In this document: positions 41,301 to 43,774 of the stretch, piece by piece
Numbering within the stretch: the stretch's first letter is position 1
Layout of the letters: each line of letters starts with the position of its first letter
DNA from: Escherichia phage mogra
Length of the DNA stretch: 64,000 bases
Sequence record: MN850579.1
Strand: one strand, 5' to 3'
The notes under the pieces: generated by a model
Database searches by the model: none
The model's input: the letters and a program-made list of their open reading frames with translations, nothing else
What the model was told of the DNA's origin: nothing
Position numbers and translations under genes: made by a program

Positions 41301-41597
41301 ATGATTTTAACTGAACAAGAGACTATGGTTCTTCGTGAACGTATTAAAACTATTCTGTCTGTAGGCGTTCATCGTGTTGTATTTGAAAAGGCTAACGGTG
41401 AGGTACGCACTATGTTTGCTTCTCGCGATGAACTTGAAGTCAAATATGAAAATAACAATCCGGCAACAGAAGTTCGTTCTGAACCTCGTGAATCAGTTCG
41501 AGCATTCGACACCAAGTTAGGACAGTGGCGTTCTTTCCGCCTTGATAAAGTAATTTCGGTTGATGGTACTCCGGTAGAACGTTTGCTTCTTATGTAA
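41301..41597 (+). CDS. hypothetical protein (98 aa from ATG 41301)
   Basis: ATG 2 nt after the cd stop; the track start 41289 is a GTG inside cd. Confidence 0.45.
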   Translation: MILTEQETMVLRERIKTILSVGVHRVVFEKANGEVRTMFASRDELEVKYENNNPATEVRSEPRESVRAFDTKLGQWRSFRLDKVISVDGTPVERLLLM

Positions 41598-41624
41598 TAT
41601 GCTTTACGAATAGTATGGTATTAT
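41598..41624 (+). promoter_or_regulatory. putative MotA-dependent middle promoter for gene 31
   Basis: taTGCTTTA at 41598-41606, 12-bp spacer, TATTAT at 41619-41624; gene 31 ATG at 41655. Confidence 0.5.
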
Positions 41625-41654
41625 TAATCTATCGTCAAACAACAAGGAAATAAG

Positions 41655-41987
41655 ATGTCTGAAGTACAACTCCCAATTCGTGCTGTTGGTGAATATGTCA
41701 TTCTGGTTTCTGAACCCGCTCAAGCAGGTGATGAAGAAGTTACCGAATCAGGACTTGTGATTGGTAAACGTGTTCAAGGTGAAGTTCCTGAACTATGTGT
41801 AGTTCATTCTGTAGGTCCTGATGTTCCTGAAGGTTTTGTTGAAGTCGGTGATTTGACTCCACTACCAGTTGGACAAATTCGAAATGTTCCACATCCATTT
41901 GTGGCTTTGGGACTTAAACAACCTAAAGAAATTAAACAGAAATTCGTAACATGCCACTATAAAGCTATTCCGTGTCTTTATAAGTGA
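41655..41987 (+). CDS. 31: gp31 co-chaperonin (GroES analogue), 110 aa
   Basis: [60 protein letters not shown]...[11 protein letters not shown] matches recalled T4 gp31 almost residue for residue. Confidence 0.92.
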
Positions 41988-41995
41988 TATAAATA
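41988..41995 (+). promoter_or_regulatory. late promoter (TATAAATA)
   Basis: Exact TATAAATA 1 nt after the gene 31 stop; about 115 nt upstream of the next ORF. Confidence 0.45.
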
Positions 41996-42111
41996 ACTAT
42001 ATGAAGAGAACACTCTTCTAAGCGGTAGCCTACAACTGAGAGACTTGTCGAAAGAAGGTGAAATTCAGACGAACGTGGCTACTAAATATTATCTCGAATT
42101 GAGAATTTAAA

Positions 42112-42360
42112 ATGATTAAACAATTACAACACGCTCTTGAACTGCAACGCAACGCATGGAATAACGGTCACGAAAACTATGGCGCGTCGATTGATGTTGA
42201 AGCCGAAGCACTGGAAATCCTGCGTTATTTCAAACATCTGAACCCGGTACAGGCAGCTTTGGCCTCTGAACTGGAAGCAAAAGATGAACTGAAATATGCT
42301 AAGCCTTTGGCTTCTGCAGCTCGTAAAGCAGTACGTCATTTTGTTATTACCCTTAAATAA
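42112..42360 (+). CDS. hypothetical protein (82 aa); rIII-like by size and position
   Basis: 82 aa, same length as T4 RIII as recalled, located next to gene 31 and downstream of a late promoter; not verified at sequence level. Confidence 0.45.
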   Translation: MIKQLQHALELQRNAWNNGHENYGASIDVEAEALEILRYFKHLNPVQAALASELEAKDELKYAKPLASAARKAVRHFVITLK

Positions 42361-42469
42361 GTTTTAGGTGATTCGCTACCTTAGTGCGGCTAGAAAATCG
42401 AGGAGCCGTCGAACTGTCTGATTAATGATTTGTGAATCATTATAGTTTTAAGACCCCGACAGTTTTACG

Positions 42470-42498
42470 GTGTACCTCTTGAATGTATTTTGTACTAT
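42470..42498 (+). promoter_or_regulatory. putative early promoter inside the long non-coding region
   Basis: GTGTAC at 42470-42475, 17-bp spacer, TACTAT at 42493-42498; would give a leader of about 150 nt before the 59-aa ORF. Confidence 0.4.
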
Positions 42499-42654
42499 CA
42501 CGCGTCAGAAAAAGGTTATCTGTCTAAGTCGCGGTTGGTATGATGACGGGTTTATGGTTATCCTGTCGTTAAATATCCAAAACCTATGTTCCCATTGAGG
42601 GCTTGCGCAGGCAATGTCAATAAGTCCTGCATTTTCATTTAAAGAGAATTTATA

Positions 42655-42834
42655 ATGGCAAAACAAGCTAAAGCAAAGAAAGCAGTTGAAAAGAAAGTTG
42701 ATGGTACCTCTAAACGCGCTGGATACAAGCGTGGGTCGAACTCTCGTATTAATCAAACAGTTGAGAAGATCATGCGCAGAGCACGTGCAGTTCTTCGAGA
42801 TGATGCTTCTCGTTTTGGAAAGGTTGTTGCATAA
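42655..42834 (+). CDS. small basic protein (59 aa, Lys/Arg-rich)
   Basis: ATG ORF MAKQAKAKKAVEKKVDGTSKRAGYKRGSNSRINQTVEKIMRRARAVLRDDASRFGKVVA; followed 5 nt later by a strong terminator; below the ORF-track size cut-off. Confidence 0.45.
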   Translation: MAKQAKAKKAVEKKVDGTSKRAGYKRGSNSRINQTVEKIMRRARAVLRDDASRFGKVVA

Positions 42835-42839
42835 TTTTA

Positions 42840-42861
42840 GGGAGACTTCGGTCTCCCTTTT
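42840..42861 (+). terminator. intrinsic terminator (GGGAGACTTCGGTCTCCC + T-run)
   Basis: Third copy of the 18-nt UUCG hairpin (42840-42857) followed by TTTTGTG. Confidence 0.7.
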
Positions 42862-42894
42862 GTGCGTTTAGGGCAGAAAAAGTTTAAAAAAGAT

Positions 42895-42923
42895 GTTTAC
42901 TCTCCTGTAGGATGTGTTACTAT
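42895..42923 (+). promoter_or_regulatory. T4-type early promoter
   Basis: GTTTAC at 42895-42900, 17-bp spacer, TACTAT at 42918-42923; ATG at 42966 with GGAGAA RBS. Confidence 0.55.
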
Positions 42924-42965
42924 AGACTTGTACCATCTAATCAATAAAACAACCTGGAGAACAAA

Positions 42966-43334
42966 ATGAAAATCAATCTGAACTCATACATCAAATGTAA
43001 AGACCACGATGGTTATAAAGCTATCGAAATTAAAGAATTCCAGTGGATGTTATACAAAGAGCAATTTGAGTTCGTAGGTTGTATGACCCCTGAAGGTCCT
43101 TCTGATGATTTCTCTTGGAAAATTGTGTTAGCAAACTTTTTCACAGGTGACACATACGAATTAAAAACTATTATTACCAGTAAAATTCGTTCAGAAACAT
43201 ATGTTGACGAAGAAACTGGTTACTCTGAAGATGTTACATGGTATCAAAATGGACGCATTACAGCAGATAACCTGATAGAAAAAATGAAAGCCAAAGGTGT
43301 TTTAAATTTAGACAATTGGATTAAAGTTGCATAA
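42966..43334 (+). CDS. hypothetical protein (122 aa)
   Basis: ATG ORF downstream of an early promoter; no motif. Confidence 0.5.
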   Translation: MKINLNSYIKCKDHDGYKAIEIKEFQWMLYKEQFEFVGCMTPEGPSDDFSWKIVLANFFTGDTYELKTIITSKIRSETYVDEETGYSEDVTWYQNGRITADNLIEKMKAKGVLNLDNWIKVA

Positions 43335-43338
43335 ACCA

Positions 43339-43378
43339 GTTTACTTTGGTACAGGTTATGTTATTATAGACCTGTACC
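43339..43378 (+). promoter_or_regulatory. early promoter embedded in an 8-bp stem-loop
   Basis: GTTTAC at 43339-43344, TATTAT at 43362-43367 within the loop of the dyad GGTACAGG(43348-43355)/CCTGTACC(43371-43378). Confidence 0.55.
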
Positions 43379-43408
43379 AACAAACAACTTAAACATCTGG
43401 AGAATAAA

Positions 43409-43774
43409 ATGAACTACACCAACTTCGAACGTAAATATGTTTCTAACGGTATTGCTGGTTCTTCTGAAGTTATTTGCTTATGGAAACACGAAAACGGTAC
43501 AGTTTGTGAAATCGAACAGTGCATGACTCCTAATTACGTTTATATGCGATTTGAAAATGGTATCACGGTTTCAATCACGATGGAAGGTTCAAATTTTAAA
43601 ATTGCATTAGATGATGATTTCCGTCAGCGTGATTTAGGTACTCATCCTTGTTGGAATGGTGTTAATCGTAAACTTCTGGTTAAAACTTGGATTCGTCATA
43701 TCCTGAGTAACCGAGCTAAACCTGAACATCTCGAAGCAATCTTTGATGTAGTTCTTAACGAATTTGATATCTAA
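43409..43774 (+). CDS. hypothetical protein (121 aa)
   Basis: ATG with GGAGAA RBS downstream of an early promoter. Confidence 0.5.
   Translation: MNYTNFERKYVSNGIAGSSEVICLWKHENGTVCEIEQCMTPNYVYMRFENGITVSITMEGSNFKIALDDDFRQRDLGTHPCWNGVNRKLLVKTWIRHILSNRAKPEHLEAIFDVVLNEFDI

Follow-up and report, generated by a model that had tools for sequence, protein, structure and literature searches.

Described systems and the rIII-30.9 spacer

In phage T4, the pseudoknot in the leader of gene 32 serves autogenous control, and an unstructured A/U-rich tract, which runs from this pseudoknot to the Shine-Dalgarno (SD) sequence, is coated by gp32. The ribosomal proteins S15 (rpsO) and S4 (alpha operon) are small basic proteins that bind their own pseudoknotted leaders. 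The preQ1-I and SAM-II riboswitch classes are H-type pseudoknots in which loop nucleotides are conserved and the third loop is rich in A. The T4 RNAs rnaC and rnaD are encoded within the tRNA cluster; they are known to accumulate and, like phage tRNA arrays, are processed from a precursor. Long interrupted hairpins between the cistrons of T7 are cut by RNase III, and T4-type phages are said to carry PeSL (promoter-early stem-loop) cassettes, reportedly described by Arbiol et al. in 2010. A T4 review states that neither a riboswitch nor a trans-acting RNA has been characterised in T4. In the tisB (+42) mRNA of E. coli, S1/30S binds to a pseudoknot and a single-stranded region situated about 100 nt ahead of the sequestered ribosome binding site (RBS), so that initiation can take place despite stable structure (PMC7708055). 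Here we compare with these systems the spacer between genes rIII and 30.9 in a 64,000-nt stretch of Escherichia phage mogra (MN850579.1), referred to below as the window.

The window comes from a T4-like phage of the genus Mosigvirus, and its positions 42000-43000 share 99% identity with Escherichia phages F27, JM17 and G53. A preliminary description, made from the letters alone, had pointed out a long gap without an open reading frame (ORF) ahead of a small Lys/Arg-rich ORF; both are present. Sequence comparison indicates that the gap is a conserved chain of independently folding + strand RNA modules, and we propose, with about even confidence, that it is a cis-acting leader controlling translation of the 30.9 cistron, probably its stability too. 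The features are as follows, with the modules given as predicted folds in the order A-B-C-E-F1-F2-SD.

42112-42360, + strand: rIII, 82 aa, in the same direction as 30.9 and annotated as rIII in the 99%-identical phages
42361-42654, + strand: ORF-free gap of 294 nt, flanked by the rIII stop (42360) and the 30.9 ATG (42655)
42367-42397, + strand: module A, hairpin CGCUAC-CUUA-GUGCG (42374-42388) with conserved flanks GGUGAUU and GCUAGAAAA
42398-42482, + strand: module B, long interrupted hairpin with helices P1 (GAGG/CCUC), P2 (GCCGU/ACGGU) and P3 (GAACUGUC/GACAGUUU), capped by an 8-bp hairpin at 42423-42442
42495-42538, + strand: module C, hairpin with an asymmetric internal loop (5ʹ side (U/C)GCG, 3ʹ side UAAGUC) and the inner stem CAGA/UCUG (42506-42522)
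42545-42586, + strand: module E, H-type pseudoknot; stem S1, 42545-42550 with 42562-42567; stem S2, loop 42553-42559 with 42581-42586 (GGUU/AACC plus UA/UA across one bulged U); conserved A-rich linker GUUAAAUAUCCAA, 42568-42580
42588-42605, + strand: module F1, hairpin CCC-AUUGA-GGG with conserved flanks GU(A/U) and CUUG
42607-42630, + strand: module F2, hairpin GCAGG/CCUGC with the 14-nt conserved loop CAAUGUCAAUAAGU, followed by a U-rich stretch
42631-42654, + strand: 30.9 initiation region with the weak SD hairpin AUUUUC/GAGAAU (42631-42649), AUG at 42655
42655-42834, + strand: 30.9 homologue, 59 aa, Lys/Arg-rich

Genes on the + strand are ordered cd, 31 (41655-41987), rIII, the gap, the 59-aa ORF, and homologues of 30.8 and 30.7, which gives the synteny rIII-30.9-30.8-30.7. 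The arrangement in T4 is identical: rIII (130785-131033) and 30.9 (130364-130540) are separated by a 244-nt gap, the counterpart of the spacer, at 130541-130784 on the minus strand of NC_000866. No other intergenic gap in 50 kb of annotated T4 matches it in length; those next in size are 31-rIII (147 nt), frd.3-32 (145 nt) and frd.1-frd.2 (138 nt). The earlier remark that such a gap is rare in a tightly packed genome therefore holds.

The gap was matched in 773 phage records, including T4, by blastn. About 70 loci were gathered from annotated phages, IMG/VR and metagenomes, giving 62 distinct gaps of 120-416 nt. Between the window and T4, the aligned gap was 95.4% identical, rIII 85.9% (66% at third codon positions) and 30.9 92.1%; between the window and IME08 the values were 92.1%, 89.6% and 78.3%, respectively. 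The aligned gap is under stronger nucleotide constraint than the flanking genes. With T4 being the reference lytic phage, the spacer is a candidate RNA that is conserved above its neighbours, covaries and is absent from Rfam.

Pseudoknot E and the other modules

In module E, the loop of a first hairpin is predicted to pair with a segment 3ʹ of the conserved A-rich linker GUUAAAUAUCCAAAA. S1 is the dyad GACGGG (42545-42550)/CCTGTC (42562-42567) that had been listed in the preliminary description. The model-guided alignment, which comprised 36 distinct sequences, had changes on both sides in 9 of the 13 pairs and pairing in 80% of its cells, and an alignment made with MAFFT gave the same covariation picture. 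The covariation score was 0.350, compared with 0.140 in shuffles (reached by 0 of 500) and at most 0.153 with slid partners. S2 occurred in unrelated, complementary versions: GUUGGUU/AACCAAC, UUGUGAG/CUCACAA, CAAGGUU/AAUCUUG, GUAGU/ACUAC, GAUGG/CCAUC and UAGUGGG/CCC(U)ACUA. Duplexes with the own partner were more stable than those with foreign partners, both for S2 (-6.39 versus -4.37 kcal) and for S1 (-4.40 versus -2.53 kcal; permutation p<1e-4 each). Module E thus has the two helices of an H-type pseudoknot, both supported by covariation. Its invariant unpaired nucleotides (UU in loop 1; GU, AAA and AAA in loop 3) would suit a compactly folded pseudoknot whose loops contact its helices.

A covariance model of module E had a single match in the window (42542-42591, 61 bits; the next best in the 64 kb scored 15.6). 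It matched exactly once in 71 of 72 related loci, making E the sole universal module. The 72nd locus, L046, has neither E nor 30.9, and a terminator and an early promoter directly follow its rIII. Because E was lost only where 30.9 was lost, the leader belongs with 30.9 and not with rIII.

Compensatory changes back every module of the window except F1, where they are weak. Module A is a 5-bp hairpin with a bulged C whose position in the gap differs among genera; its closing pairs, compared by eye and not by a formal covariation test, covary as C-G/U-A/A-U, G-C/A-U and A-U/G.U/G-C. In module B, RNAalifold predicted 25 pairs, five of which were changed on both sides. Its tip is the 8-bp hairpin TAATGATT-TGTG-AATCATTA (42423-42442), which had been noticed earlier and is present; tip and P3 are both altered in a compensatory manner in locus L027, and a minimised module B with only the outer helices P1 and P2 is retained in L039. 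Copies of module C were folded singly because length differences defeat the RNAalifold alignment. Three outer stems and four inner stems surround its conserved internal loop UGC/UAAGAC in other lineages. Module F1 (3-4 bp) is present in most related gaps, either just 5ʹ of F2 or directly 3ʹ of the rIII stop, and its weak covariation consists of CCC/GGG, CCUC/GAGG and GCC/GGC. At least six different stem sequences form module F2 across lineages, with duplex energies of -8.6 kcal for own and -4.8 kcal for foreign partners (permutation p<1e-4). We also considered an attenuator-type alternative helix between F1 and F2 (AGGGCUU/AAGUCCU), which is thermodynamically favoured in the window and unmaintained in other lineages, and rejected it. 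The motifs of modules E, F1 and A each occur in a single copy in the 64 kb, and no repeated element was found.

Alignment and inspection of all gaps indicated that modules are kept, lost, replaced or reordered among genera. The orders differing from that of the window were as follows.

T4: A-B-E-F1-F2-SD
VR26: A-B-D-E-F1-F2-SD
Klebsiella phage LilPanda: G-E-A-D-F1-F2ʹ-SDʹ
L031: F1-E-H-SDʹ, in only 120 nt
L012: C-E-F1-F2-SD, in 162 nt, with an rIII 100% identical to that of the window

L012 (1750-1911) and L092/L093 share 100% of the rIII protein yet have a 162-nt gap; even a very close relative can thus do without A and B. Such natural module swaps and minimal versions (gaps of 120-416 nt) provide a ready-made deletion series. 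Cassette swaps were seen at fixed junctions, between GAATGT on one side and TATGATG on the other. Module G (CCCAC-CAUG-UGUACG-CAUG-GGUAAC), absent from the window, is found at 597-626 of the LilPanda locus (L009) and also in L048, L038, L090 and L134. Its loop UGUACG is conserved, and its stems covary as CAUG/CAUG, CUCUG/CAGAG and CUUUG/CAAAG.

Module C has no counterpart in T4. In its place, a 137-nt module D is present in many relatives, namely VR26 (L007, 836-972), LilPanda (L009, 711-847), PG7, Moon and the T2-like metagenome contigs L094 and L095. RNAalifold predicted 40 pairs in a multi-helix junction, 19 of them with compensatory changes, and the 3ʹ part, GCUAACGGUGUGCAACAGAUAAGAG, is nearly invariant. 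The motif of module D, which the window does not contain, occurs once per T4-like contig and had no Rfam match. Module D may be the most interesting RNA at this locus.

The modules are better explained as RNA than as DNA. Several pairs of module B are invariant G.U pairs that would mismatch on the other strand, and G.U intermediates connect compensatory states. Covariation together with this wobble asymmetry argues for a + strand RNA and not a DNA element. Of 60 gaps, 44 folded better as the + strand than as the complement (Wilcoxon p 1e-5, from samples that are not independent), whereas fold stability alone was uninformative (z = -1.2 for the + strand and -1.9 for the - strand). If a promoter, a replication origin, a protein-binding site or a recombination site explained the conservation, the exchange in this region would be accounted for: it recombines, as seen in the swaps at fixed junctions and in a mini-circle-like copy in phi92-like phages. 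The compensatory changes and strand-specific G.U pairs, however, point to RNA, and a promoter-like site was not found in the gap. The GGGCTTG of F1 was rejected by eye as a MotA box, since no TAnnnT lies at the right distance, and F1 is left without a usable -10 hexamer for a MotA-type promoter; the annotated T4 origins oriF and oriG lie elsewhere in the 50-kb stretch. We consider an explanation at the DNA level extremely unlikely.

A candidate leader of the 30.9 cistron

The preliminary description had placed an early promoter at 42470-42498. This proposal failed: the -35 sequence GTGTAC matches TTGACA at 2 of 6 positions, the left half is the 3ʹ strand of helices P2 and P1 of module B, and the -10 sequence lies in a segment that is deleted in T4 and replaced in VR26. 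No sigma-70-like site was found in the gap by scanning, with T4 middle and late types checked by eye only. Candidate signals were found on both sides of the rIII-30.9 unit.

41988-41995: late-promoter motif TATAAATA, upstream of rIII, at the start of the 31-rIII spacer
42064-42092: sigma-70-like site TTCAGA-17-TATTAT, upstream of rIII
42839-42864, + strand: intrinsic terminator GGGAGAC-TTCG-GTCTCCC plus TTTT (42840-42861), with a 7-bp GC stem, a UUCG loop and a U run
42895-42923: early promoter for 30.8, GTTTAC-17-TACTAT

In T4, rIII is reported to be served by early, middle and late promoters (PMC9409239), and the rIII promoters are likely the source of the transcripts that cross the gap. The strong terminator that had been described after the ORF is present and has the elements of an intrinsic terminator; it is annotated in the 99%-identical G53 at -16.3 kcal and was missed by our rule-based scan. 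F2 with its U-rich tract is only weakly terminator-like. Of the autonomous unit that had been suggested, the terminator stands and a promoter of its own does not; the unit is oriented like rIII and follows that gene and its promoters. Since the gap has no promoter, the spacer is most simply read as an intercistronic leader within the rIII-30.9 message, and a stand-alone small RNA gene with its own promoter is not supported. The structured leader that had been offered as the other possibility is supported, as the hairpin and the dyad fall in helices that covary across genera. The earlier reading as a structured 5ʹ untranslated region was essentially right, and the observation behind it was real apart from the promoter.

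The initiation region is consistent with control of translation. The SD sequence of 30.9 is weak, a GAG at 42644-42646 located 8 nt before the AUG, and is paired in the weak hairpin. A run of pyrimidines further upstream pairs with the SD-like purines in most of 31 distinct initiation regions, and the two sides vary in step (UUUUC/GAGAA, UCUCC/GGAAGA, CCUC/GAGG); the hairpins in these regions are weak, from -0.1 to -5.4 kcal. The pseudoknot and its linker end 69 nt before the AUG, and F1, F2 and the SD hairpin lie between them. Read from the sequence, this is a standby-type layout, with a platform upstream of a sequestered RBS.

In the mechanism that we propose, the spacer would be transcribed on the + strand within the rIII-30.9 message and would fold into a chain of independent modules. 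The pseudoknot and the single-stranded A-rich linker would form a ribosome entry platform, a standby site for 30S/S1. Alternatively, the pseudoknot may bind a repressor, most plausibly the basic gp30.9; this second possibility is compatible with the first. Translation of 30.9 could in this way proceed, or be stopped, separately from that of rIII and in spite of the intervening stable hairpins, and the variable modules would be accessory, serving stability, processing or shielding of a long untranslated stretch. Gene 30.9, whose function is unassigned and which is present in more than 1000 phage records, would gain a testable regulatory context.

The tisB standby site appears to be the closest working model for this leader. 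In both, the RBS is sequestered and is preceded, at a distance of tens of nucleotides, by a pseudoknot and a single-stranded stretch; stable hairpins occupy the interval. The two are unrelated in sequence; module E is inside a polycistronic phage message, whereas the tisB platform is at a processed 5ʹ end, and binding of S1/30S is here inferred. Many pseudoknots bind S1 tightly (PMC7708055), and the rIII protein itself binds S1 (PMC9409239). That a gene for an S1 binder adjoins the leader is curious, and we take it as a lead and not as evidence. If the pseudoknot is an S1/30S standby platform, it would be a phage instance of this mechanism, located beside the gene for an S1-binding protein.

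Gene 32 belongs to the same phage group and likewise has an H-type pseudoknot in the leader of a gene for a small protein of the nucleic-acid-binding type, also in one of the largest T4 gaps (frd.3-32, 145 nt). The interval from pseudoknot to SD, however, is not an unstructured tract here; it holds the stable hairpins F1 and F2, of which F2 covaries. The ribosomal-protein leaders are similar in that a small basic protein is encoded behind a structured, pseudoknotted leader. They differ in that gp30.9 has no detectable relation to ribosomal proteins and that autoregulation is putative in the present case. Pointers to such a putative autogenous operator are indirect: gp30.9 is very basic, with a low-confidence N-terminal half, and the leader co-occurs with its gene; locus L036, described below, is a counter-example.

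Module E resembles the preQ1-I and SAM-II riboswitches in having a stem 1, a short loop 1, a stem 2 formed from the hairpin loop and a 3ʹ tail, an A-rich loop 3 and conserved loop nucleotides. Such H-type topology, upstream of a gene with a sequestered RBS, would suit E, with or without other modules, as a metabolite-sensing aptamer controlling 30.9. In contrast to these classes, E has no covariance-model match, with no Rfam riboswitch model matching even at E<=10, and its stem 1 and loop 3 are longer. No conserved switch of an expression platform was seen: there is no conserved alternative pairing between aptamer and SD, and the F1/F2 helix is confined to window-type sequences. Moreover, no metabolic gene is involved, as gp30.9 has no metabolic link, and the D core and E core motifs were found in none of 185,579 bacterial and archaeal genomes. 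We regard a riboswitch as very unlikely.

Several observations weigh against control of 30.9 translation. The shuffle statistics given above for module E ignore the kinship of the sequences and overstate significance because the sequences are phylogenetically related. S2 is weak in the window, with four contiguous pairs and two across the bulged U. The spacing from E to the AUG and the intervening modules vary among phages, which a strict operator would not tolerate. Module D of the relatives is more elaborate than translational control requires. Outside the T4-like phages, distant homologues of 30.9 lack E and are preceded by a short leader with a hairpin, of about 70 nt in L132. Finally, the T4-like contig L036 (1750-2533) keeps the leader though its 30.9 is truncated after about 16 codons. 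The remnant runs in frame into a 214-aa ORF, which has its own GAGG-ATG start inside the remnant, indicating that a gene replacement left the leader in place; this counts against a role that depends on gp30.9.

The modules might also be generic parts of the mRNA with no specific ligand: RNase III or RNase E sites uncoupling rIII from 30.9, protection of the rIII 3ʹ end, or exclusion of Rho from a long untranslated stretch. Module B is a long interrupted hairpin like those of T7, F2-type hairpins are trailed by U-rich tracts, and terminator-like modules of the Cʹ type (GAGCUCUUUUAUU) stand just before the SD in L029, L049 and L036. Most modules are dispensable somewhere, as the gaps of L031 (120 nt) and L012 (162 nt) illustrate. 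Generic stabilisers, however, would not need the conserved loops and linkers, namely the GUU, GU.AAA and AAA of E, the CAAUGYCAAUAAG of F2 and the UGC/UAAGAC of C, nor a pseudoknot retained in every lineage. The target of RegB is single-stranded GGAGRAYARAA (PMC1702504). We rejected a RegB site, since the only GGAG of the gap reads GGAGCCGUCGA, is off this consensus, and lies in and adjoining helices P1 and P2 of module B, where it is base-paired. Generic housekeeping thus seems quite improbable to us.

As the main alternative, the modules might be small stable noncoding RNAs, processed as an array from the rIII-30.9 transcript and acting in trans as decoys or binders, for example of S1. They behave as independent cassettes whose order and content differ by genus while the folds are kept, and their nucleotides are conserved above the flanking genes. 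Module D, with 40 pairs of which 19 are compensatory, has a complexity typical of autonomous RNAs. The persistence of the leader without an intact 30.9 in L036 also fits.

A further point for RNAs acting in trans comes from phi92-like phages, which are not T4-like and hold a whole T4-type leader, A-B-E-F1-F2-SD, without 30.9 (L050, 1296-1639; L051; 53247-53917 of phi92, FR775895). The leader is followed by an ATG, the last 26 rIII codons and the second copy of a 13-bp direct repeat, TTTATTGGAGATT. The insert lies between tRNA-Gly and tRNA-Gln, and sister phages are without it. Its arrangement resembles that of a mini-circle cassette, circularly permuted and acquired from a Tequatrovirus. Against action in trans, the gap has neither a promoter nor a clear terminator at its end, the 30.9 initiation region invariably forms the end of the array, which is lost together with 30.9, and the modules are unrelated to rnaC and rnaD. 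Processed RNAs acting in trans are, in our judgment, unlikely. A bolder version, in which E, D, A, B, C and G would be horizontally exchanged trans-acting structured RNAs of an unrecognised class of phage noncoding RNA, is somewhat less probable still. If it were true, these RNAs could be, for example, high-affinity ligands or decoys of S1 or of another host factor that, with the S1-binding RIII, reprogram translation or counter host defence.

Returning to the leader of 30.9 as the preferred reading, we compared it with described RNAs. A search of 41500-43500 with 4227 Rfam models (E<=10) gave only chance-level matches of snoRNA, miRNA and terminator type, none of them inside the modules, and Rfam searches of seven related loci (E<=1) gave nothing in the gap. 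Like rnaC and rnaD, the modules are small structured phage RNAs of unassigned function that are encoded between genes; unlike these, the leader is outside the tRNA cluster and is a predicted RNA, and the modules have no sequence similarity to rnaC or rnaD. Our literature search found no description of the leader; a paper on rIII/30.9 expression (Driukas & Nivinskas 2003, cited in PMC9409239) was outside its coverage. Because there was no Rfam match, no relation to rnaC/rnaD or RegB, no bacterial copy of the motifs and no describing paper, we file the leader under a new RNA family: an mRNA leader that is structured, contains a pseudoknot, shows unusual modular evolution and has a putative function.

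Coding potential of the gap and the surroundings of 30.9

The preliminary description had seen no convincing ORF in the gap, and none is conserved among the 62 related gaps. The longest ORF has 42 aa in the window and 16-82 aa among these gaps, and its length shifts even among near-identical sequences. Small proteins have nevertheless been annotated here: automated calls placed ORFs of 37-68 aa in the gap of G53, JM17, NicPhage and T2, and a Swiss-Prot entry corresponds to an upstream-extended T4 30.9 of 97 aa. The gap ORFs annotated in GenBank, however, vary from record to record, neither length nor frame is conserved even in near-identical phages, and the lengths of the indels do not go in threes. 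In the window, a TAA at 42640 stands in frame upstream of 30.9. In some lineages a frame of 10 codons starts at the AUGAUG before E, and in others this frame meets an immediate stop or a frameshift; a leader peptide starting there was rejected, as frames and lengths are unconserved. We give almost no credence to hidden protein-coding genes, and an unannotated small gene of the relatives, which the preliminary description had named as a finding that would refute its reading, does not account for the interval. The spurious small ORFs called in the gap are database errors that can now be corrected. The Swiss-Prot entry, named '11.1 kDa protein in Gp30-rIII intergenic region' (97 aa, T4), extends into the leader.

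The 59-aa ORF (42655-42834) is a homologue of T4 gene 30.9, 96% identical to T4 gp30.9, and IME08, VR26 and PG7 annotate it as 30.9 or gp30.9-like. The protein matches phrog_1427 over residues 1-57 (E 2.4e-31). Gene 30.9 was found in 1006 phage records by tblastn, and of 127 homologue clusters the named ones are, with few exceptions, phage proteins. The motif SKRAGYKR-SN-R is nearly invariant: among 42 homologues, R21, Y24, K25, R26 and R31 never vary, and S19, K20, A22, G23 and N29 are conserved in at least 90%. AlphaFold2 predicted a helix at 34-54 and a basic N-terminal half without secondary structure (pLDDT about 56-60). With this low-confidence half and no relative in Pfam, NCBIfam or PDB, the earlier label of a nucleic-acid-binding protein is a guess for gp30.9. 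In many GenBank records the homologue carries the name '1,4-alpha-glucan (glycogen) branching enzyme, GH-13-type', which on a protein of 58-59 aa is an obvious error of the annotation pipeline.

Distant homologues of 30.9 (40-46% identity) occur in the non-T4 contigs L130 (1384-1720) and L132 (1256-1720) as stand-alone units, composed of a TTGACT-17-TATACT promoter, a 5ʹ hairpin, a GGAG SD sequence, the ORF and a strong terminator. The layout of an autonomous unit that had been suggested for the window matches these distant units of other phages.

Downstream of 30.9, the terminator hairpin is followed by the early promoter within about 35 nt (42839-42923), as in PeSL cassettes. The leader resembles PeSL in the modular shuffling of short regulatory cassettes; it differs in that its modules are structured RNAs with conserved loops, not promoter/terminator pairs. 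A second early-promoter-like site was seen at 43340-43367, ahead of 30.7. The 31-rIII spacer of the window (41988-42111) is also long, at 124 nt, and contains a perfect 6-bp hairpin, GAAGAG-AACA-CTCTTC, at 42003-42018.

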